Assembly: GCA_049966795.1 (NCBI GenBank)
Contig: JBMFTY010000001.1
Location: forward strand, 14,444-78,443
Direction of reading: 5' to 3'
Origin: Thermoplasmata archaeon
GTDB taxonomy: Archaea; Thermoplasmatota; Thermoplasmata; Thermoplasmatales; GCA-001856825
DNA: 64,000 nt
How positions within the stretch are numbered: the stretch's first letter is position 1; each line of letters begins with the position of its first letter. This document shows, piece after piece, positions 2,608-18,048 of this stretch. The notes under the pieces are model-generated. The model ran no database searches and was not told the origin of the DNA. It saw nothing but the letters and a program-made list of their open reading frames with translations. Position numbers and translations under genes: made by a program.

Positions 2608-2643
2608 TGCATCAAAATGCATTCTCCATATAAGAATATAGGT

Positions 2644-2766
2644 GGAGACGGCGAACCGCATTTCCCGTGCCCTCGCGGAACACAGTACGCGTGCGGAACG
2701 CGGACGGGCTTAACCTTCGGGTTCGGAATGAGACCGGGTGTTTCCCCGTCGCTATGGCCGTCAACC
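2644..2766 (-). rRNA. rrf: 5S ribosomal RNA (unlinked copy)
   Basis: The minus strand reads GGTTGACGGCCATAGCGACGGGGAAACACCCGGTCTCATTCCGAACCCGAAGGTTAAGCCCGTCCGCGTTCCGCACGCGTACTGTGTTCCGCGAGGGCACGGGAAATGCGGTTCGCCGTCTCC. This holds the canonical 5S blocks (CCATAGC, CCGAACCC, GTTAAGCC, GTACTG, GGGAA) and terminal helix GACGGC/GCCGTC. Ends are +/- a few nt. Confidence 0.85.
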
Positions 2767-7200: not shown

Positions 7201-7428
7201 TCATCTCTTCTTTATTTTTATTTTGGCTACGATCACTCCATTGTCCTCTTTCATTTCCAGTATTTCATTTCCCGTCTTTGCAGCCCAGGCTTGAGTGTCC
7301 TTTCTCATTGCCTTATCCTTATCGGTGAACCAGAGCTCTATAACATCGCCCGTTTTGCAGTGCCTGTAAGCGTTTGAAAGATATGTTATCGATGCACAGG
7401 TTGCTACCCTACTATCCACCACCCTCAA
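7201..7428 (-). CDS. TusA/SirA-like small protein with a non-canonical active-site motif
   Basis: 75 aa with a TTG start. It has DSRVATCASI where TusA has DxRGxxCPxP: the Cys is kept and both Pro are lost. The overall size and alternating pattern look TusA-like. Confidence 0.45.
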   Translation of the reverse strand: MRVVDSRVATCASITYLSNAYRHCKTGDVIELWFTDKDKAMRKDTQAWAAKTGNEILEMKEDNGVIVAKIKIKKR

Positions 7429-7654: not shown

Positions 7655-8317
7655 TTGCTTAATCAACATGAAAAATCACGAATCACGGCAAGACCGGAAA
7701 ATAGGAAGCTTACGCGCGGACAGGTTGAGGTAACCGTGGAGGTTGAAAGGCAGAAATGTTTCATAGATGAAACTCTCTTCAGCAAGTGTTGTTCCATCGA
7801 ATGTCTCTCTCTTGGGCCGGATAGAACAATTCATAAGGTGGTCTGCAAGGAAGGCCAGGAGGAGTGCGTTAGAAAGCTTCTCGCGGGCAAAGACCTGAAA
7901 TTCAAAAGGGCCGGGAAAAATGTATTCTGGGTGGAGTCAGACAGTTGCGTTTCCTGCGCCTTTTTTGCAAGGTCTTTCTCAAATGTTATGGGGTCCATAC
8001 TTCAGGACAAGAACAAGCTTCAGTACAAGGTGCTGTTACCCTCAATCAGGGGGCTGAAGGACCTCAAGGAGGGAATGGAAAACGCAGGACTGAAGTACGA
8101 GATAGCAGAAATAAGGTCATACATGCATCAGGAGCTCACGGATAGGGAGCGTGAAGTGCTGCGGAAGGCACTCCAATATGGATATTTCAAGGAGTCCTCA
8201 AGAACTTCCCTCACGAGCCTGGCCGAAATCATCGGAATATCACCATCATCCCTCTCAGCCATACTGAGGAGGAGTCTCAGAAAGGTCGTAAATTTCTATT
8301 TCGATCACAAACCCTGA
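7655..8317 (+). CDS. HTH_10 (bacterio-opsin-activator type) transcription regulator with a Cys-rich N-terminal region
   Basis: The C-terminus LTDREREVLRKALQYGYF...SLTSLAEIIGISPSSLSAILRR is a typical HTH_10. Nine Cys lie in the first ~110 aa. The start is uncertain (TTG 7655; no in-frame ATG nearby). Confidence 0.6.
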   Translation: MLNQHEKSRITARPENRKLTRGQVEVTVEVERQKCFIDETLFSKCCSIECLSLGPDRTIHKVVCKEGQEECVRKLLAGKDLKFKRAGKNVFWVESDSCVSCAFFARSFSNVMGSILQDKNKLQYKVLLPSIRGLKDLKEGMENAGLKYEIAEIRSYMHQELTDREREVLRKALQYGYFKESSRTSLTSLAEIIGISPSSLSAILRRSLRKVVNFYFDHKP

Positions 8318-8886: not shown

Positions 8887-9300
8887 ATGAGTAAGAAGAT
8901 GGCGATAACGGTATTCACAGGAGCGGTGGATAGGCTGACAGGTATGGCGGTACTTGTCGGAGGTGCTGCTGCTTCGGATATAGATGTTGATATATTCCTT
9001 CAGCTGTGGGGTGTCTATGCGATGAGGAAGGACGTGATTGAAAAGAACATGGAGTTCAGCGAGCATGATGATCTGAAGACTGAGGTGGTCGGGGGCCTAA
9101 CCAGGATAAAAGCGCCTTCCTGGATCGATATGCTAAGAGAGGCGAAGAAGGCGGGGAACGTGAAAATCCATGCCTGCTCCCTCGCACTGCAGATTTGGAA
9201 CAAATCAAAGGAAGACCTCGTCGATGTTGTGGACGATGTAATGGGGGCCGCTGAATTTCTCGATCTCTCTGCAAAGGCGAACATAACCTACTTCATATAG
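8887..9300 (+). CDS. DsrE/DsrF-like (DrsE_2 / COG2210-type) sulfurtransferase-like protein
   Basis: 137 aa. It has AITVFTGAVDRLTGMAVLVGGAAA...FLQLWG and a conserved Cys in KIHACSLAL, as in DsrE3-type proteins. Confidence 0.6.
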   Translation: MSKKMAITVFTGAVDRLTGMAVLVGGAAASDIDVDIFLQLWGVYAMRKDVIEKNMEFSEHDDLKTEVVGGLTRIKAPSWIDMLREAKKAGNVKIHACSLALQIWNKSKEDLVDVVDDVMGAAEFLDLSAKANITYFI

Positions 9301-9302
9301 AG

Positions 9303-9572
9303 GTGTTAAAGTTGGTGCTAAATGAAAAGGACCTGGCTAGTGTGAAGTCTGCCAAGCTGGTTGATGCCAGAGGGACAGCCTGTCCCGGTCCATTGCTAGC
9401 TGCGAAAAAGGCAATGAGCGAAGTTCCTCCGGGAGGGATACTGGAAGTCTGGTCCTCCGACCCTGGGACGAACAGGGACCTTCCGTTCTGGGCAAAGAAA
9501 ATGGGGCACGAGTATCTTGGAACTATAACGGAAGCGGGATACTGGAAGATATTCGTCAAGAAAGGAAAGTAA
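9303..9572 (+). CDS. tusA: TusA-family sulfur carrier
   Basis: Carries the canonical motif VDARGTACPGPLLAAKKA. GTG start 2 nt after the upstream stop. Confidence 0.85.
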   Translation: MLKLVLNEKDLASVKSAKLVDARGTACPGPLLAAKKAMSEVPPGGILEVWSSDPGTNRDLPFWAKKMGHEYLGTITEAGYWKIFVKKGK

Positions 9573-9574
9573 GC

Positions 9575-9988
9575 ATGAACGGAGAGCCAAGGATCCTGGT
9601 ATTCTCCACGAATCTGATCTCAGACCCGGGGATAGACCTGGCCGGCCTTCTCAAGATGCACTATCCCTCCACAGTACACATCATCAGCGTCCCCTGTTCC
9701 AGCATGGTCAAGCCGGAGTGGATCCTTCATGCGCTGGAGAAGGGGTATGACGGCGTGTTCATAGCCGCTGATGGAACTGACTGCCCCTGCATATCAGACT
9801 GTACGGAAAGAACATCAAGGAATGTGGGAAGGGCGCAGGAGATGATGAAGGAAAGGGGCATAGACCCCGCCAGGGTCAAGATGGCCGCTATTTGCTCTGT
9901 CTGCTCTGAGGCGTTTGTGAATCACGTGAAATATTTTAAGGAATCCCTCGTAAGCATAGCCAGCCAGATGGTAGGGGTGAAAGCATAG
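9575..9988 (+). CDS. MvhD/FlpD-like iron-sulfur protein
   Basis: 137 aa with RILVFSTN...ISVPCSSMV...GYDGVFIAADGTDCPC, typical of the methyl-viologen-reducing hydrogenase delta subunit family. Starts 2 nt after the tusA stop. Confidence 0.7.
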   Translation: MNGEPRILVFSTNLISDPGIDLAGLLKMHYPSTVHIISVPCSSMVKPEWILHALEKGYDGVFIAADGTDCPCISDCTERTSRNVGRAQEMMKERGIDPARVKMAAICSVCSEAFVNHVKYFKESLVSIASQMVGVKA

Positions 9989-10014
9989 GAAACAAGGAAG
10001 AATACGACACGCTT

Positions 10015-11292
10015 GTGATCGGTGCCGGTATATCAGGGATGGAGACGGCCCTCAATCTTGGGGACATGGGCTTCAGGGTGCTTCTAGTTGAGAAAACCCC
10101 AAGCATCGGCGGCACGATGATCCTCCTCAGCAAGGTGTTTCCAACCCTTGACTGCGCATCATGCATTTCCACTCCGAAGATGGCATCAGTCATGCATCAT
10201 CCGATGATAACAACCCTAACATACACGAACGTGGAAGAGGTGAAGAGAGAAGGAAACAGATTCTCCGTCAGGATTAAGAAGAATCCAAGGTACGTGAAGG
10301 AGGATGTGTGCACGGGCTGCGGCCAATGTGAGAGCAGCTGCCCCGTTGTTGTTCCAGACCAGTATGCATACGGCCTGGTAGGGAGAAAGGCTGCCTACAT
10401 TCCGTTTTCCACTGCCTCCCCCAGGGTCGCTCTCATAGACCTCAAAAACTGCGTTCTTTGCGGTATGTGCGAGAGAATATGTCCGGCGGATGCGATAGAC
10501 TTTACGCAGCAGCCTGTGGAAAGGGAAGTGAGGGTGAGGACCATAGTTATTGCAACGGGCTTCAACCTGTTTCCCGCGGAGAGGATGTCGAACTACGGTT
10601 ATGGAAAGTTCGAAAACGTCATAACTTCAATGCAGATGGAGAGGCTTCTTTCACCAACCAGGCCGTTCAACAATGTGTTGAGGCCATCGGACGGCAAGGT
10701 TCCCTCAAAGATCGCTTACGTACTATGCACGGGCTCAAGGGACAGAACGGTTGGGAACAGCATATGTTCGCAGGTATGCTGCATGTATTCTATCAAGCAG
10801 GCGCAGCTTCTCATGGGTGCGTTGCCCCTGGTCGAGGTGACGATCTTCTACATAGACATCAGGGCATTCGGCAAGGGCTATGAGGAGTTTTATCAGCAGT
10901 CGAAGGAGATGGGGATACGTTTTGTCAAGGGTAAGGTATCAAAAATTGACAAGAAGGAAGACGGCAACCTCGTCCTGAGATATGAGGACATAGGCGATTA
11001 CGGGAAGCTGAAGGAGGAGGAATTTGACATGGTTGTCTTGTCAGTTGGCCTACTCCCATCCTATGAGATCCTGTCGAAATTCAATGGTCTCAAGGTGGAG
11101 CAGGACGAGGCGCTTTTCATCAGGTCCCAGGATATCTTGAACGTCACGGAAACGAGCATTCCTGGGGTGTTCGTGACTGGAACGGCATTTGGTCCCAAGG
11201 ACATCCCAGATTCCGTCACTTCAGCAGGTGATGCGGCTGCTGGGGCAGCTGCGTTCATGAGGGAACAGGAGGTGGCTGCGAACGCCAAATGA
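10015..11292 (+). CDS. Short HdrA-like flavoprotein (QmoA-like) with an inserted 2x[4Fe-4S] ferredoxin motif
   Basis: Has GAGISG...LVEKTPSIGG, FPTLDCASCISTPKM, CTGCGQCESSCP and CVLCGMCERICP. The true start is probably upstream of GTG 10015 (see finding). Confidence 0.8.
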   Translation: MIGAGISGMETALNLGDMGFRVLLVEKTPSIGGTMILLSKVFPTLDCASCISTPKMASVMHHPMITTLTYTNVEEVKREGNRFSVRIKKNPRYVKEDVCTGCGQCESSCPVVVPDQYAYGLVGRKAAYIPFSTASPRVALIDLKNCVLCGMCERICPADAIDFTQQPVEREVRVRTIVIATGFNLFPAERMSNYGYGKFENVITSMQMERLLSPTRPFNNVLRPSDGKVPSKIAYVLCTGSRDRTVGNSICSQVCCMYSIKQAQLLMGALPLVEVTIFYIDIRAFGKGYEEFYQQSKEMGIRFVKGKVSKIDKKEDGNLVLRYEDIGDYGKLKEEEFDMVVLSVGLLPSYEILSKFNGLKVEQDEALFIRSQDILNVTETSIPGVFVTGTAFGPKDIPDSVTSAGDAAAGAAAFMREQEVAANAK

Positions 11293-11302
11293 AAAGATAG
11301 GG

Positions 11303-13237
11303 GTGTATATCTGCCATTGCGGAGGCAACATATCTGATTACGTTGACGTGAAGAAGGTAAAGGAGAAGCTTGAAGGGACGCCAGGTGTCGCGCTCATCAA
11401 GACCATGATGTTCACCTGTTCTGATTCCTCACAGCAGGAGATAATCTCGGATATAAAGGAAAAGGGGCTGGATGCCGTTGTTATTGCATCGTGCTCCCCA
11501 AAACTGCACCAGTTCACGTTCAGAAATGTTGCAAAGAGGGCGGGTCTAAATCAATATAAGTACGTGCAGGCAAACATCAGGGAACAGGTGTCCTGGGCGC
11601 ATTCAAATGACCCGAAAGGGGCAACGGAGAAAGCTATATCTGTGATAAGAGGCGCTATAAGCAGGGCTAGGGAGGCCGAAGCGCTGGAACCGATAGGTAT
11701 TCAGAGCAGCAGGTCTGTACTCATAATAGGAGGAGGTGTCAGCGGGCTCCGATCTGCCCTTGAATTTTCAAAAATAGGGGTGAACGTATACCTCATCGAG
11801 AAGTCCCCGTTTCTGGGAGGAAGGCTGATGCAGTGGGCACAGCTGTTTCCATCGGGGGAAAGTGGGAGAAATGTGGCGGGAAAATTGGTTGAGGATGTTA
11901 CGAGAAGGGAGAATATCACGGTGATGACAAACGCACAGCTGATTGAGAAAGCGGGGTGCGTAGGAAACTTCTCCGTCAAGATAAAGATATGGCCACGGGG
12001 AGTGGTGAAAAGAAGCGACAAGTTCCAGGAGGCAATCCAGAAATGTCCCGTGGAATACGAGGACGAGTATGAATTCGGAATCGGGAAGAGAAAGGCGATC
12101 TTCCTTCGGGAAGGCTCATATCCTGGACTGCCGGCAATAGATTTTGAAAAATGCACTCGATGCGGGGAGTGCGCGAAAATATGTGGAGATGCCGTAGACC
12201 TGCAGCAGAGGGAAGAGGTTATAGAGCTGAACGTTGGTGCGATCGTGGTCGCAACCGGTTTTGATCCCTATACTCCCAAATCCGGGGAATTCGGCTACGG
12301 GAAATTCAAGCGTGTCATAACACTTCCCATGCTTGAACGGTATCTGTCACATAGCACAGGGAAGGGGAGGTTGATTATAGATGGAAGGGAGATAAAGAGC
12401 GCAGCGTTCATCTACTGTGTGGGCAGCAGGCAGCACAGGGAGGAGGGGAAGGATGTGAACGAATACTGTTCAAGGTACTGCTGCACGTCCTCCATCTTCG
12501 TATCCCTCCACCTGAAGAAGGATTATCCGCATCTCAACATATACCATCTTTTCAGGGATATCAGAACCTACGGGAAGAACGAGCTTTATTACGAAGATGC
12601 GTCGCGGAGGGGGGTGGTCTTCGTGAAATACGATGAGGACGACCCGCCAACAGTCACCTCGGATGGGGATTCCCTCATGGTTTCCGTGACGGACCTCCTC
12701 ACTGACAGGGAGAGATTGGAGATTCCAGTGGATCTTGTCGTGCTCGTAACTGGTATGGTTCCCAGGGAAAATGGATCCCTCACGCAGATACTCAAGATCC
12801 CGACCGGGAGGGATAGGTTTTTCAACGAGGTGCATCCTAAGCTCAAGCCTGTGGAGACGACGATAGCAGGCATATACCTCGCGGGTACAAGTCAAGGGCC
12901 GAAGAACACTCAGGAATCAATTTCTTCAGCGCTATCTGCAGTTTCCAAGGCATCATCCCTCCTGATGAAGGGGAAAATCGAGCTAGAGCCAAACGTTGCT
13001 CATGTGAATGAAGAAATTTGCGAGTGGTGCGGGAAGTGTGCGGAAGCATGTCCATATGACGCAATCAGGAAGGTCCAAATCAACGGAAAGGAGGTTGCTA
13101 CAATCGAAGAGGGAATCTGCAAAGGATGTGGTGCCTGTGTTCCCTACTGCCCGGTCAATGCCATACAGGTTTTGGGCTACTCTGATAAGGAGATAATGGC
13201 TGAGATAGATGCTATGGCCGCCAAGGAGGTTGAGTAA
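11303..13237 (+). CDS. Full-length HdrA-like flavoprotein (QmoB-like, lacking a fused MvhD domain)
   Basis: The N-terminus YICHCGGNIS is the HdrA N-domain motif. It also has GGGVSGL FAD binding, CTRCGECAKIC, YCSRYCC, and a C-terminal CEWCGKCAEACP + CKGCGACVPYCP. Confidence 0.85.
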   Translation: MYICHCGGNISDYVDVKKVKEKLEGTPGVALIKTMMFTCSDSSQQEIISDIKEKGLDAVVIASCSPKLHQFTFRNVAKRAGLNQYKYVQANIREQVSWAHSNDPKGATEKAISVIRGAISRAREAEALEPIGIQSSRSVLIIGGGVSGLRSALEFSKIGVNVYLIEKSPFLGGRLMQWAQLFPSGESGRNVAGKLVEDVTRRENITVMTNAQLIEKAGCVGNFSVKIKIWPRGVVKRSDKFQEAIQKCPVEYEDEYEFGIGKRKAIFLREGSYPGLPAIDFEKCTRCGECAKICGDAVDLQQREEVIELNVGAIVVATGFDPYTPKSGEFGYGKFKRVITLPMLERYLSHSTGKGRLIIDGREIKSAAFIYCVGSRQHREEGKDVNEYCSRYCCTSSIFVSLHLKKDYPHLNIYHLFRDIRTYGKNELYYEDASRRGVVFVKYDEDDPPTVTSDGDSLMVSVTDLLTDRERLEIPVDLVVLVTGMVPRENGSLTQILKIPTGRDRFFNEVHPKLKPVETTIAGIYLAGTSQGPKNTQESISSALSAVSKASSLLMKGKIELEPNVAHVNEEICEWCGKCAEACPYDAIRKVQINGKEVATIEEGICKGCGACVPYCPVNAIQVLGYSDKEIMAEIDAMAAKEVE

Positions 13238-13239
13238 CG

Positions 13240-13518
13240 ATGCAAAAGAAAGTCCTAACAGTTGATTCGCTCAAGAACAAGATCGAGGTTCCCAAGGAAC
13301 TTCTGGAAAAGGTCCGTTCCGACAATCAGATAAAAGCATCTATACTAAAAGCCCTGAAGGATGGACCTAAGACCATACCTGAGATAGCTCAGGCTACAGG
13401 TCTTTCTTCCCCAACGGTAACGTGGTGGCTTATGACCCTCAGGAAGTACGGTTCCATAATCGAGGAGGAAGGTGGAATGGAGGATTATTACAGGTACAAA
13501 CTGAAAGGGGGAAAATGA
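13240..13518 (+). CDS. Small winged-helix (ArsR/MarR-like) protein embedded in the operon
   Basis: 92 aa with ILKALKDGPKTIPEIAQATGLSSPTVTWWLMTLRKYG. Starts 2 nt after the HdrA stop, and its stop abuts the next ATG (TGAATG). Confidence 0.5.
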   Translation: MQKKVLTVDSLKNKIEVPKELLEKVRSDNQIKASILKALKDGPKTIPEIAQATGLSSPTVTWWLMTLRKYGSIIEEEGGMEDYYRYKLKGGK

Positions 13519-14640
13519 ATGGTAACTGTCAAGCCTGATCTTCTGGATGAGATGAAGAAGCTGGGGGCGTTCGACGTATCTGCCTGCTACAGTTGCGGCA
13601 CTTGCACGGCAGTTTGTCCTCTGTCAACCAACGGTCACGAATTTCCAAGGAAGATGATAAGGTATGCGATGATAGGGGACGAGAATAAGCTTCTTGCCAG
13701 CACGGAGCCCTGGCTCTGCTATTACTGCGGGGAGTGCACAAGGACATGCCCTCGTGGCGCGGATCCTGCAGGATTCATGATGGCTGCAAGAAGGTATCTC
13801 ACAACAAGATATGATGTCACTGGCTTTTCCAGGAGGTTTTACAGGTCGAAAAGCTTGGAGATTCTTTCCGGAGTCCTCCTCTTTTTCCTGACGGTGTTTC
13901 TTGTCTACATGTTCCACGGTCCGGTGGTCACATCGTACGTGGATCTGGTATCCTTTGCCCCCTTGCGCATAGTGGACCTTGGAGATATTGCGGTGATGAT
14001 ACTCTTAGGTGGTCTCCTCCTCACAAACCTCTACAGGATGTTCAGGTTCACGGTTGCATCATCCCCAAACGGTAAGATTCGCATCTCCTCATACCTGAAG
14101 GAATTGATAAAGACAGTGCCGGTGCATTTTCTAACACAGAGGAGAACCCTTTCATGTGAGAAGGGAGACAGGGATTGGATAATGCACGTGCTTACAGTCT
14201 ATGGCTACGCCTCGTTCTTCGTTCTTGGTGTGTTCCTGCTTGATCTATGGCAAACAAATGTTATGTACCCAATATACAACCCTGTAAGGCTCATAAGCTA
14301 CATCGCCACGGTCATGCTGGGTTTAGGCGTTGGCTATGCCATCTACGGTCGCATAAAGAAGAGCTCAACGATGAGAGAGAAAAGTCACTCAACGGACTGG
14401 TACTTCCTAACGCTTCTGTTCCTAGTCGTTGTGACTGGAGTTGCGGTAACGGTCTTCAAATACACGAACCAGCCAATCGCCACCTATGTCTCGTATACGA
14501 TTCACCTGGGATTCATAGTCCCGCTACTCGTTCTGGAGGTTCCTTTCGCTAAATGGTCCCATCTGGCTTACAGGCCATTTGCAGTGTATTTCGCAAGGCT
14601 GCAGGATTTGCTGAAGGGGGCTGAGAAACCGTCCCCGTAG
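13519..14640 (+). CDS. QmoC-like fusion: HdrC-type 2x[4Fe-4S] domain plus NarI/HdrE-like membrane cytochrome b domain
   Basis: N-terminal CYSCGTCTAVCP and CYYCGECTRTCP motifs are followed by about 6 hydrophobic helices. Conserved His residues are present (MFHG, VPVHF, IMHVL, TIHLG, KWSHLAYRP). Confidence 0.75.
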   Translation: MVTVKPDLLDEMKKLGAFDVSACYSCGTCTAVCPLSTNGHEFPRKMIRYAMIGDENKLLASTEPWLCYYCGECTRTCPRGADPAGFMMAARRYLTTRYDVTGFSRRFYRSKSLEILSGVLLFFLTVFLVYMFHGPVVTSYVDLVSFAPLRIVDLGDIAVMILLGGLLLTNLYRMFRFTVASSPNGKIRISSYLKELIKTVPVHFLTQRRTLSCEKGDRDWIMHVLTVYGYASFFVLGVFLLDLWQTNVMYPIYNPVRLISYIATVMLGLGVGYAIYGRIKKSSTMREKSHSTDWYFLTLLFLVVVTGVAVTVFKYTNQPIATYVSYTIHLGFIVPLLVLEVPFAKWSHLAYRPFAVYFARLQDLLKGAEKPSP

Positions 14641-14781: not shown

Positions 14782-15153
14782 CTATTCGGAAGAGTACTTC
14801 GTCAACCTCTCCACGATGAGTTCCAGATTCACTTCTCCGGTCCTGAAGAAGGCCCCCACATTGCGCTTCTTTCCCGAAATAAGAATCATTGATACATCCT
14901 GGCTGCGGAATATCATCTCGTTCACGTGCTCAAATGGTATCCCGCAGTACATTGAATATATTGAAAAGATATTCGAAAGCAGAGAGAAGAGAGAGCCACT
15001 CAACCTTGCGGTGGAATCAGCCTGAACCGAGTTCAATTGTTCACTCTTGAAAGACAGGAGTTTTCCAGAATAATCGAATTCCCCGACTGCCAGCACACCC
15101 TTCATTTTGTAAATTTCCTCGATTTTCATAGTTACCACTTTCGTATGAATCAT
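14782..15153 (-). CDS. Roadblock/LC7-fold small protein (DUF2173-like)
   Basis: 123 aa. KGVLAVGEFDYSGKLLSFKSE resembles my recollection of DUF2173/roadblock proteins. The assignment is tentative. Confidence 0.4.
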   Translation of the reverse strand: MIHTKVVTMKIEEIYKMKGVLAVGEFDYSGKLLSFKSEQLNSVQADSTARLSGSLFSLLSNIFSIYSMYCGIPFEHVNEMIFRSQDVSMILISGKKRNVGAFFRTGEVNLELIVERLTKYSSE

Positions 15154-15236: not shown

Positions 15237-15521
15237 CTAGTCTCCCAGTTCCTTCAATTTCTTATTGCTGAACAGATTTTCCTTCAATTCCTTATCAAGC
15301 TGCGGATCTTTCCTTCTGAGGTATTCAAGTATCATGGCGAAGTGTTCCTTCTCGTCATCTCTATTATGCATCATTATGTATTTCAACTCCTTGTCCTTTG
15401 TCACATCGGCACGTTCGTCATAGAACATTATTGCCTCAATCTCCTCAATAAGAGACTGTCTCGCTCTGCTGAGGTCCTTAACATCTTCGCTTATATTTTC
15501 GTCAGACTCATATCTTGGCAT
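15237..15521 (-). CDS. Encapsulated-ferritin (EncFtn) family protein, short form
   Basis: EEIEAIMFYDERADVTKDKELKYIMMHNRDDEKEHFAMILEYLRRKD closely parallels the EncFtn core (EELEAVDWYDQR...HNRDEEKEHAAM..EWLRR) with the Glu/Glu/His ferroxidase ligands. Confidence 0.7.
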   Translation of the reverse strand: MPRYESDENISEDVKDLSRARQSLIEEIEAIMFYDERADVTKDKELKYIMMHNRDDEKEHFAMILEYLRRKDPQLDKELKENLFSNKKLKELGD

Positions 15522-16728: not shown

Positions 16729-17639
16729 GTCAGAAGCCTGTTCAGATACCAGTCCAACGTGAATGGTACCAGGTCAGAATAGGTCTGGCCAGTTCCTATG
16801 AACAGTATTGGCTTCTTCGTCTCGGCGAGAAGGGAGATGATGCTTCCCCCCTTCGCATCCGCATCTATCTTTGTAACTATGTACCCATCCACGCCCACAG
16901 CCTCGTCAAACAACTTGGCCTGATTAAGCGCGTCCGTTCCGGCAAGGGCGTCTATGGTGAGGATCGTGAAATCGGGAGAGGAAATCCTCTTTATCTTCTT
17001 CATCTCCTCAAGCAGATTCCTGTTCGTCTGCATCCTTCCCGCGGTATCTATCAGCACAACTGCCTTCTGGAATCTTGAGGCATGCTTCACCGCGTCAAAG
17101 GCCACCGCCGCAGGATCGCCGCCAGCCTGATGCTTGATGACCTTCACCCCAACCTTCTCTCCAAGGAGGGCAATCTGCTCTATCGCACCCGCCCTGAAGG
17201 TATCCGAGGCAGCTATGACCACGTAATCCCCGCGTGCTTTGAACATGTCTGCCAATTTCGCCACCGATGTGGTTTTTCCCGTACCGTTCATGCCGACGAA
17301 GAGGATCACGAAGGGGGACTTCCCTTCAGCCATTTCCATGATGTTGACCGGGGGAACATTTGCAATCTGCATTATTGTTTCCCTTACCGCCTCCCTCAGC
17401 ACGGCGTTCCTGTCCCCTCTGAGCTTCACGCTCCCTTCCCTTATCTTCGAGAGGAGGGTGCTGGATATCCTGTCCGCAACCGGAAGAACAACATCGGCCT
17501 GAAGGAGGGAAATCTTCAGGTTGGAGGAGATCTCTTCGGGCCTCTTCGTGGATGCAACCGCGGCGAACAGATCATCCGTTTCTACCTGTTGCTCATTTCT
17601 CTTGACCAAACCGAGCAATTCCTTCAGCTTCTCGAACAT
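16725..17639 (-). CDS. ftsY: Signal recognition particle receptor FtsY
   Basis: SRP GTPase motifs GMNGTGKTT, DTAGR and TKIDADAKGG. The start is placed at ATG 17639 (MFEKLKELLG), just after the prefoldin stop. Confidence 0.9.
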   Translation of the reverse strand: MFEKLKELLGLVKRNEQQVETDDLFAAVASTKRPEEISSNLKISLLQADVVLPVADRISSTLLSKIREGSVKLRGDRNAVLREAVRETIMQIANVPPVNIMEMAEGKSPFVILFVGMNGTGKTTSVAKLADMFKARGDYVVIAASDTFRAGAIEQIALLGEKVGVKVIKHQAGGDPAAVAFDAVKHASRFQKAVVLIDTAGRMQTNRNLLEEMKKIKRISSPDFTILTIDALAGTDALNQAKLFDEAVGVDGYIVTKIDADAKGGSIISLLAETKKPILFIGTGQTYSDLVPFTLDWYLNRLLT

Positions 17640-17643
17640 CTGC

Positions 17644-18048
17644 TCACTTCTTGTAGAGCGTGTTGATGTACTCTTCCAGCTGAGAATAACGCCTCTGGAG
17701 GTCGTTCTCAAGGTCGCTGTTCCTCTCTATCGCCCTCGTAACGTCATTCCTCCTTTCTTCGATGATCTTGAGAGCGTCTTCCACGGTAGCTTTCTTGTAA
17801 GCTCCAGACCCGAGGCTCACCAGAACTCTTTCCCTGTTCTTGATCTCAGCCTCCACGTACAGCCCTCTCCCTATGGGTATGAGAGAGTCCCCCTCAACCT
17901 TTCCGATGTTCCTGAGGAAATCGCTCGTGACTATGAGGTCCTGGAGCAGCTGGGAAAGCGACTGGTTCCTCTGCTCTATCTCCTCAATCTGCTCTCTGAT
18001 TACCTCCATGCTGTACGCAACCTCGTTGATTCTCGATTCCTGCGACAA
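17644..18048 (-). CDS. pfdA: Prefoldin alpha subunit
   Basis: 134 aa coiled-coil/beta-hairpin/coiled-coil layout with LIPIGRGLYVEAEI...VLVSLGSGAYKKATVEDA. Confidence 0.8.
   Translation of the reverse strand: MSQESRINEVAYSMEVIREQIEEIEQRNQSLSQLLQDLIVTSDFLRNIGKVEGDSLIPIGRGLYVEAEIKNRERVLVSLGSGAYKKATVEDALKIIEERRNDVTRAIERNSDLENDLQRRYSQLEEYINTLYKK

Follow-up and report, generated by a model that had tools for sequence, protein, structure and literature searches.

A Qmo-type redox cassette paired with TusA and DsrE sulfur carriers in a Thermoplasmata archaeon and across archaeal and bacterial phyla

A 64-kb stretch of DNA from a Thermoplasmata archaeon (GenBank assembly GCA_049966795.1, contig JBMFTY010000001.1, positions 14,444 to 78,443; hereafter the window) carries an operon of seven genes that code, in order, for a DsrE-like sulfur carrier, the sulfur carrier TusA, a free-standing subunit of the MvhD/FlpD family, a short HdrA-like flavoprotein (QmoA), a full-length HdrA (QmoB), a winged helix-turn-helix protein (wHTH), and the membrane subunit QmoC (Table 1). 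The cassette is real and strongly conserved; its core is a known variant of the Qmo complex, and the pairing of this core with a sulfur relay and with a modified MvhD is undescribed as far as found. Taken together, the seven genes are predicted to encode one membrane-bound complex and two dedicated sulfur carriers.

An earlier note on this DNA, made from the letters alone, had described the seven genes as lying on the same strand and nearly abutting, and all of their open reading frames (ORFs) are confirmed, with intergenic gaps that, according to the ORF calls, measure 2, 2, 26, 10, 2, and 0 nt in order. The 26-nt gap in front of QmoA is probably an artefact: the Rossmann beta-1 strand of the protein ('EEYDTLVIG') is encoded in frame 5' of the first canonical start (GTG at 10015), homologous QmoAs begin further upstream, and an ATA at 9985 shares bases with the MvhD stop ('ATAG'), so that the true start would lie upstream, near 9985. 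The segment between 9940 and 10015 holds either a non-canonical start or a sequence error.

Table 1. The operon (first seven rows) and other features of the window, with positions counted from the first letter of the window.
Feature	Position	Strand	Size	Family match or remark
DsrE-like (DsrE2B-like) carrier	8887-9300	+	137 aa	Pfam DrsE_2, DsrE
TusA	9303-9572	+	89 aa	Pfam TusA
Free-standing MvhD/FlpD-like subunit	9575-9988	+	137 aa	Pfam FlpD
Short HdrA-like flavoprotein (QmoA)	10015-11292	+	425 aa	HdrA2 model
Full-length HdrA (QmoB)	11303-13237	+	644 aa	HdrA2 model
Winged-helix protein (wHTH)	13240-13518	+	92 aa	Pfam HTH_5
QmoC	13519-14640	+	373 aa	NCBIfam qmoC
HTH_10 (archaeal Bat-type) regulator	7655-8317	+		Directly upstream of the operon; Pfam HTH_10 2.6e-16
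Divergent TusA-like ORF	7201-7428	-	75 aa	Pfam TusA 27.2 bits, cut-off 28.6
DUF2173 gene	14782-15153	-		Convergent to the operon end
EncFtn-like (encapsulated-ferritin-type) gene	15237-15521	-		Convergent to the operon end
5S rRNA gene, orphan	2643-2765	-		No 16S/23S nearby
Five tRNA genes	15905, 26928, 54751, 59345, 61439			

Subunits and carriers encoded by the operon

The first two ORFs belong to the DsrE and TusA families, as the earlier note had proposed, according to Pfam profiles, solved relatives in the PDB, and the motif cysteines. The DsrE-like protein scores above the Pfam cut-offs for both DrsE_2 (1.4e-14; 54.8 bits, cut-off 25) and DsrE (1.3e-5), and its closest solved relative, which aligns over the full length, is the S. 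solfataricus protein 2QS7 of the DsrE2B type (E 2.9e-23); the family assignment therefore stands and is refined from DsrE-like to DsrE2B type. The NCBIfam equivalog cut-off for DsrE2 (210 bits) is not reached, the score being 44.9 bits with the C-terminal half alone aligned. The protein has a single cysteine, Cys97 in 'KIHACSLAL', which is invariant in 69/69 cassette-linked DsrE-family proteins. TusA (Pfam TusA 5.5e-22; 77.8 bits, cut-off 28.6) likewise has one cysteine, Cys27 in 'DARGTACPGP', and its Cys-Pro-x-Pro motif is invariant in 61/61 proteins; the closest solved relative is Thermoplasma Ta1170 (1PAV, 4.7e-17), and matches extend to E. coli TusA and to the YeeD domain of YeeE-YeeD.

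The naming of the two flavoproteins as QmoA and QmoB is borne out by alignment to the HdrA2 model and to 5ODC_A, the HdrA of M. wolfeii. QmoA covers model positions 144-568 and 5ODC_A residues 149-567 (E 3.3e-119); it is composed of a thioredoxin-reductase/flavin adenine dinucleotide (FAD) domain with an inserted 2x[4Fe-4S] ferredoxin, lacks the N- and C-terminal domains, and retains 'FPTLDCASC', the equivalents of HdrA Cys194/Cys197. QmoB (residues 1-638 on 5ODC_A 8-649, E 1.9e-135; model positions 4-644) has all four domains, namely the N-terminal domain with Cys4/6/39/64 ('CHCGGNI'), the FAD domain, the inserted ferredoxin, and the C-terminal ferredoxin, and with them the FAD and the six [4Fe-4S] motifs that qualify a four-domain HdrA. 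The Cys194/197 pair is missing from QmoB ('LFPSGESGR') and is supplied by QmoA, and a motif census finds this complementarity, with 'FPTLDCxxC' in the short HdrA and the Cys-rich N-domain in the long one, in every cassette locus. In HdrA, Cys197 completes the N-terminal cluster of the partner protein, and complementarity marks obligate heterodimers (Chadwick et al. 2022, PMC9012536). By homology, QmoA and QmoB would form such an asymmetric HdrA heterodimer, served by three predicted electron paths, one each for QmoC with the quinone pool, the inserted ferredoxin domains, and the MvhD-like subunit.

This last subunit matches Pfam FlpD (4.3e-30) and the MvhD 5ODC_D (1e-14). Its description as a free-standing MvhD holds for the gene, which is a separate upstream unit and not a C-terminal fusion to QmoB as in type I Qmo (QmoBs of L029, L046, L056, and other loci), and fails for the protein, which does not carry the canonical MvhD cysteine set (CCxxC ... 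C ... GC ... C). The cysteines present are Cys41, Cys70/72/76, and Cys107-x-x-Cys110, and the N-terminal 'CCNWC' is missing; specifically, where an alignment of five solved MvhDs shares 'FCCNWC...VMCSG...GGCHxGDCH' and 'WISASEGE', the window protein reads 'FSTNLIS', 'VPCSS', 'DCPCISDC', and 'ICSVCSE'. The C-terminal CxxC is found in 53/56 cassette MvhD-like proteins, with the remaining Cys positions varying, and three proteins from Chloroflexota have no cysteines other than this pair. Canonical MvhD, type I QmoB in its MvhD domain, and the MvhDs of loci that begin with qmoC (see below) all lack this motif, so that the CxxC co-varies with TusA and DsrE, and it is the only candidate site for sulfur redox chemistry in the cassette.

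QmoC matches the NCBIfam qmoC model almost from end to end (1.6e-57, residues 9-357 on positions 6-359 of 360), at 195.6 bits against an equivalog cut-off of 300 bits, which is not reached. Its residues 5-100 match the HdrC 7BKB_C (1.9e-13), and the protein has two CxxCxxCxxxC motifs, six hydrophobic segments, and histidines at 133, 223, 290, 329, and 348. The claim that an HdrC-type diferredoxin is fused to a NarI/HdrE-like domain with heme-ligand histidines is thus confirmed, His223, His329, and His348 being invariant in 83/83 QmoCs of all types and, with Cys213, in both type I and type II. On these motifs, QmoC is predicted to be the quinone module, made of an HdrC-like 2x[4Fe-4S] domain and a six-helix, multi-His membrane domain of the di-heme b type; the PDB has no Qmo structure. 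The closest cultured relatives are species of Vulcanisaeta, whose QmoCs are 61-65% identical.

The presence of a 92-residue winged-helix protein between QmoB and QmoC is likewise confirmed, by Pfam (ArsR-type HTH_5, 3.2e-6) and by the fold of an AlphaFold2 model (pLDDT, the model's own confidence score, 82), whose best Foldseek match (E 1.8e-4) is to SmtB/CzrA and which displays a generic ArsR/SmtB-like fold. The gene is translationally coupled to its neighbours and occupies the same position at about 60 loci; the protein has the invariant signature 'DGPKTIPEI ... Y70 G71 ... Y84 x Y86', and its profile finds 468 clusters at 50% identity, 145 of them with E<=1e-10. Because the coupled position is fixed across phyla and bacterial loci have separate ArsR and LysR regulators, the wHTH may be a subunit or adaptor rather than an autoregulator. 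A role as a DsrD-like activator or as a persulfide sensor was considered and ruled out, since the protein has no cysteine and its matches, to ArsR/SmtB, MarR, and Z-alpha winged helices, are generic (about 1e-4).

Conservation of the cassette and its relation to known systems

A QmoC alignment scan was run over one genome per GTDB species, and its 80 best loci were analysed by tblastn, ORF clustering, and hidden Markov models (HMMs) derived from the clusters, for a total of 84 loci examined (83 fetched loci and the window). The genes for TusA, MvhD, short HdrA, full HdrA, wHTH, and QmoC occur in this same order at 62 of the 84, which represent four lineages of archaea and about ten phyla of bacteria. 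The archaeal hosts are Thermoplasmata, Vulcanisaeta, and Thaumarchaeota and Archaeoglobales metagenome-assembled genomes (MAGs), and the bacterial ones include Chloroflexota (many of them Anaerolineales), Planctomycetota, Verrucomicrobiota, Acidobacteriota, Bacteroidales, Desulfobacterota, Elusimicrobiota, Krumholzibacteriia, and others. Vulcanisaeta sp. JCM 14467, which belongs to another archaeal phylum, carries the seven genes in identical order, their stop and start codons overlapping, and the seven-gene order recurs in closer Thermoplasmata relatives (L084-L086) and in another archaeal MAG (L087/L088). The synteny that the earlier note proposed to look for in Thermoplasmata and other archaea is therefore conserved there and in bacteria as well, and the cassette is widespread and no peculiarity of Thermoplasmata.

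The association with the sulfur carriers was counted wherever the flanks were long enough. TusA is found upstream of MvhD at 46/47 cassette loci and at 0/13 other Qmo-type loci (Fisher p=2.7e-12), a DsrE-family gene immediately precedes TusA or immediately follows QmoC at 39/40 and 0/13, respectively (p=1.7e-11), and 0/62 cassette loci have aprBA within 10 kb, against 4/12 canonical (type I) loci (p=4e-4), all of these p-values being indicative only and overstating the evidence, as the loci are related by descent. The proposal that the carriers are functionally tied to the redox complex receives strong support from the linkage across phyla. In the window, HMMs built from a verified AprB (PF12139, 5e-38), a verified Sat (PF01747, 6e-82), and an AprA-like flavoprotein find no match anywhere in the 64 kb, in agreement with the reported absence of apr and sat. 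Moreover, the genes that flank the operon are unrelated to it and the downstream pair lies on the opposite strand, so that aprBA or sat just outside the operon cannot share its transcription unit. The reported lack of dsr and of an HdrB-type gene also holds for what was scanned: neither dsr nor HdrB (CCG domains) is found in the seven genes or in the 20 largest other ORFs, the small ORFs having been scanned in part.

Several lineages add genes to the cassette, all of them concerned with sulfur trafficking. In Chloroflexota a second TusA, a YeeE (Sulf_transp, 4.5e-79), and a second DsrE are present, a second TusA and a YeeE lie upstream of the cassette at L087, and in Bacteroidales the additions are rhodaneses. 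A type III flavoprotein resembling sulfide:quinone oxidoreductase (SQR; NF049943, 286 bits) is encoded divergently from the cassette in the closer Thermoplasmata relatives (L084:848-1990 on the minus strand, L085, and L086), and a homologue with 33% identity lies downstream of the cassette in a Verrucomicrobia locus (L012:11274-12446). As a constant partner SQR was ruled out: SQR-like genes occur at L084-L086 and L012, weakly at L063, and not in the window. About 20 bacterial loci have an ArsR gene upstream of TusA (e.g., L014:5240-5578), and in these ArsRs cysteine is conserved at two positions (17/20 and 13/20), which lie ahead of the HTH and within the C-terminal helix and by which the proteins presumably resemble the dithiol persulfide sensors SqrR, BigR, and sHdrR.

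QmoA itself varies. A form of about 900 residues has a GltD/NfnB-like module (Fer4_20 and a second Pyr_redox_2) inserted into the inserted-ferredoxin region, which makes it resemble HdrL; it is found at L012:5251-7965 and at L030, L039, L048, L051, L053, L058, L060, and L070, in Acidobacteriota, Verrucomicrobia, Bacteroidales, and others, and implies a putative NAD(P)H partner in those lineages. A further arrangement, besides the cassette and the canonical type I, consists of QmoC followed by two HdrAs and a canonical MvhD without TusA, DsrE, or wHTH (L009, L016, L018, L034, L062, and L081), and is hosted by Thermoprotei, Archaeoglobaceae, Methanoperedens, and some bacteria.

Canonical QmoABC, or type I, known from sulfate reducers and green sulfur bacteria (Pires 2003), contains two hemes b, two FAD, and an MvhD-like domain in QmoB, is linked to aprAB, and has been proposed to act by confurcation with an unknown third partner (Ramos 2012, PMC3333476). 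The cassette shares with it the QmoC architecture and His/Cys set, the two complementary HdrA-like flavoproteins, an MvhD-type module, and the quinone-linked confurcation logic as proposed for type I. In contrast, in the cassette the MvhD is separate, with altered cysteines and a CxxC, QmoB has the complete four-domain build of HdrA, QmoA retains the HdrA 'FPTLDCxxC' and both inserted-ferredoxin clusters, a wHTH gene is placed between QmoB and QmoC, TusA and DsrE are attached, and aprBA is never adjacent. The Cys197 motif was considered as a mark of type II and ruled out, because type I QmoA has a corresponding 'FPKLCPPxC'; Cys197-type complementarity is thus general to Qmo.

Neukirchen et al. 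(2023, PMC10504309) distinguish type I Qmo from an HdrA-like type II and count the latter among the genes of the sulfate reducer Vulcanisaeta moutnovskia. Their supplement lists QmoC as WP_013605692, QmoB as ...694, and QmoA as ...695, and the sat-aprAB-dsr genes as WP_0136038xx, distant from the Qmo genes. The Qmo accession numbers skip one gene exactly at the position of the wHTH, and for this reason the redox core of the cassette is almost certainly the published type II QmoABC. The published account of type II is limited to QmoA, QmoB, and QmoC and leaves the function open (PMC10504309), and a passing mention places archaeal dsrEFH type II genes near qmoAB (Plum-Jensen et al. 2026, PMC13293266). 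No description of the TusA-MvhD-HdrA-HdrA-wHTH-QmoC cassette was found in the full texts searched, a coverage that leaves out Chernyh 2020 and Appel 2021. The suggestion that the combination is uncharacterised accordingly stands for the coupling to TusA and DsrE and is qualified for the Qmo part, which is known as type II.

Compared with the HdrABC-MvhAGD of methanogens (5ODC) and with the HdrA clusters, tandem or fused and heterodimeric, of anaerobic methanotrophic (ANME) archaea (PMC9012536), the cassette shares the full HdrA domains, the partner of the MvhD family, the HdrC-like module, and the complementarity of Cys197 and N-domain, but it has no HdrB, hence no heterodisulfide site, and no hydrogenase or formate dehydrogenase, its HdrC module and a heme-b membrane anchor form one protein, and its MvhD cysteines are altered. 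Relays of TusA and DsrE are established for the HdrB-containing sHdr system of sulfur oxidation (Tanabe 2024, PMC11094781), whose gene set is shdrC1B1AHC2B2 or B3-etfAB-emo (PMC11094781). Like the cassette, it is an Hdr-related complex genetically tied to TusA and DsrE-family carriers, and the cassette DsrE is of the same DsrE2B (2QS7) type as in the Metallosphaera cuprina DsrE3A-DsrE2B-TusA cluster (Liu 2014). However, sHdr is soluble and relies on HdrB/HdrC pairs, a short one-cluster sHdrA, and lipoate-binding proteins, whereas the cassette has neither HdrB nor separate HdrC genes and combines full methanogen-type HdrAs with a quinone-reactive QmoC. With SQR the analogy is functional only: SQR links sulfide or persulfide to the quinone through a cysteine pair and feeds carriers, but it is a single monotopic flavoprotein without iron-sulfur (FeS) clusters, heme, or a ferredoxin branch, and its architecture is unrelated.

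Proposed function and alternatives

The reading that we favour, with a probability of roughly 0.45, is that the cassette encodes an HdrA-type complex linked to menaquinone and working by bifurcation or confurcation, with the sulfane sulfur bound to TusA and DsrE as its third partner, and we infer that the persulfide on TusA would be the redox substrate. Each half of this proposal has a precedent by analogy: bifurcation or confurcation is already proposed for canonical Qmo (PMC3333476), and relays from DsrE and TusA into Hdr-like complexes, established for sHdr (PMC11094781), may offer a model for the other half.

In the proposed mechanism, QmoB would give the N-terminal FeS domain and QmoA the Cys197-type ligand to a shared N-terminal cluster. 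The core would communicate with menaquinone through the HdrC-like FeS domain and the b-hemes of QmoC, and with a low-potential carrier through the shared N-terminal cluster and the inserted ferredoxin domains, as in bifurcating HdrA, while the third port would be the divergent MvhD-like subunit, reached via the C-terminal ferredoxin domain of QmoB. Sulfane sulfur, possibly from S0 or polysulfide, from SQR, or in other lineages from thiosulfate imported by YeeE, would be loaded as a persulfide on Cys97 of the DsrE2B-like protein and on Cys27 of TusA and offered to the MvhD-like subunit, whose CxxC, alone or beside an FeS cluster, may undergo thiol/persulfide exchange with it. From there electrons would reach the FAD by way of QmoB's C-terminal ferredoxin domain, to be split between, or merged from, menaquinone and ferredoxin; the wHTH would most simply be a structural adaptor. 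The E0' of S0/HS- is about -270 mV, that of menaquinone -75 mV, and that of ferredoxin about -450 mV, and as the sulfur couple lies approximately midway between the other two, the reaction would be reversible and run close to equilibrium. For heterotrophs that respire sulfur, among them Thermoplasmata and Vulcanisaeta, we favour the reductive direction, with menaquinol and reduced ferredoxin jointly reducing TusA-SSH to H2S; conversely, with sulfide in excess, the complex could run in reverse, sulfide driving the reduction of quinone and ferredoxin.

A bolder extension, which appears doubtful at present, regards the complex as a "bifurcating SQR" that couples persulfide/sulfide on TusA to the joint reduction of menaquinone and ferredoxin or, running backwards, acts as a confurcating sulfur reductase; it would occur widely among anaerobes from more than ten phyla, and Apr-linked QmoABC would be a later specialisation of this older complex tied to sulfur carriers. 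In a midpoint-rooted neighbour-joining tree of QmoC, calculated without bootstrap support, the Apr-linked QmoCs group as one clade within the diversity of cassette QmoCs.

A number of points weigh against the sulfane-sulfur reading. No sulfur-redox catalytic site (HdrB/CCG, DsrK, molybdopterin, or siroheme) is recognised in the seven genes, and the CxxC of the MvhD-like subunit may merely substitute for the lost N-terminal cysteines as FeS ligands, because its place beyond the last beta-strand is one where ligands of a cluster would be expected and because the three Chloroflexota proteins mentioned above have no other cysteines. Gene linkage is no proof that TusA is a redox substrate, and the statistics of that linkage are weakened by the common descent of the loci; the cassette-linked DsrE proteins do not form one orthologous group, a possibility now ruled out, as there are at least three DsrE-family subgroups among them; and one cassette locus, in a Thaumarchaeota MAG (L005:5788-6435), is alone in having neither TusA nor DsrE. 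Moreover, the NAD(P)H module of the longer QmoA would give some versions of the complex a conventional soluble donor, and the homologous cassette of V. moutnovskia is treated as the Qmo of a sulfate reducer with sat-aprAB-dsr elsewhere.

This last point leads to an alternative in which the complex is a type II QmoABC that shuttles electrons between menaquinol and an AprAB encoded elsewhere, with TusA and DsrE serving the Dsr/DsrC side. QmoC has the same family membership and the same His set as Apr-linked QmoC, its closest cultured relatives are the Vulcanisaeta proteins at the identity given above, the V. moutnovskia Qmo genes combine a cassette layout with distant sat-aprAB-dsr (PMC10504309), the Apr-linked QmoC of Ammonifex groups with archaeal cassette QmoCs in the neighbour-joining tree, and the archaeal dsrEFH type II genes near qmoAB (PMC13293266) fit a Dsr role of the carriers. 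We nevertheless consider this alternative unlikely: aprBA is within 10 kb of none of the 62 cassette loci and of 4 of the 12 canonical ones, the 64-kb window has neither apr nor sat, Anaerolineales, Bacteroidales, Planctomycetota, Acidobacteriota, and others are the groups in which the cassette occurs most often, and the linkage to TusA, the wHTH, and the altered MvhD cysteines are left unexplained. The complex could also conduct electrons for a sulfur enzyme encoded elsewhere, docked on the MvhD-like subunit and fed by TusA and DsrE, candidates being enzymes of the DsrC/DsrAB, sHdr, or sulfur/polysulfide reductase type. The absence of any sulfur-catalytic domain found in the cassette favours this view, as do the docking of a separate hydrogenase or formate dehydrogenase at methanogen MvhD as the site of electron entry (PMC9012536, PMC3333476) and the known transfer of sulfur from TusA and DsrE to DsrEFH/DsrC or sHdr (PMC11094781, PMC13293266). 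It becomes quite improbable in that no conserved partner enzyme lies within 10 kb at any of the 62 loci and that the MvhD-like subunit has lost the canonical cysteine motif of the Mvh/Fdh context and gained a CxxC specific to the cassette.

A sulfur-independent role is given a similarly low standing. In this scheme the complex acts, by bifurcation or confurcation, as a ferredoxin/NAD(P)H:menaquinone oxidoreductase, co-regulation alone links it to TusA and DsrE, which handle or detoxify sulfane sulfur, and the wHTH is an autoregulator. Every cofactor module needed for a reaction between ferredoxin, NAD(P)H, and quinone is present, the GltD/NfnB-like module of the 900-residue QmoA supplies an NAD(P)H site, and the generic ArsR/SmtB fold of the wHTH is of a DNA-binding type. 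However, co-regulation alone seldom holds genes in a fixed order, with spacings of 0-2 nt or overlaps, across phyla of both archaea and bacteria, TusA always directly precedes the MvhD-like gene, the bacterial loci already possess separate ArsR and LysR regulators, and the wHTH has no cysteine with which to sense sulfur.

These distinctions matter for the reading of genomes, in that Qmo-type complexes are usually treated as markers of the reduction or oxidation of adenosine 5'-phosphosulfate (APS), whereas the commonest relatives of this QmoC are tied to a TusA/DsrE relay and are never beside apr; metagenomic Qmo matches may thus be over-read as evidence of sulfate metabolism. The cassette also gives a handle on the identity of the "third partner" of Qmo and HdrA, and bears on how many anaerobes that do not reduce sulfate process cytoplasmic S0, polysulfide, and thiosulfate, and on whether sulfur couples can drive flavin-based bifurcation. 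Cultured Vulcanisaeta strains, which have the identical seven-gene cassette, provide experimental access.

Flanking genes and side observations

The HTH_10 gene directly upstream is a possible local regulator of the operon, to judge from its position and family; it is absent at the related loci L001-L004 and L084-L088, which include Vulcanisaeta and the closer Thermoplasmata. The divergent TusA-like ORF, transcribed away from the operon about 1.5 kb upstream of it, has 'ATCASI' in place of the CPxP motif, and no counterpart was seen at the related loci. In Pfam scans, the 20 largest ORFs of the window outside the operon belong to housekeeping families only, not every small ORF having been scanned, and no LbpA or maturation gene is evident among the scanned ORFs, a result that comes from no search aimed at them. 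The 5S rRNA gene stands alone, and unlinked rRNA genes are typical of Thermoplasmata.

At L005, the MvhD-like protein is extended at its N-terminus by about 80 residues, and a PhoU-like gene lies upstream. At L087/L088, a heme o synthase gene follows QmoC directly (11157-12089; NF003349, 215.4 bits, below the 246-bit cut-off), and a UbiE-type methyltransferase gene is found near the cassette (17169-17948). As general backing for the quinone link these two genes were set aside, since they come from a single lineage; they suggest an aerobic or microaerobic host for this copy of the cassette.

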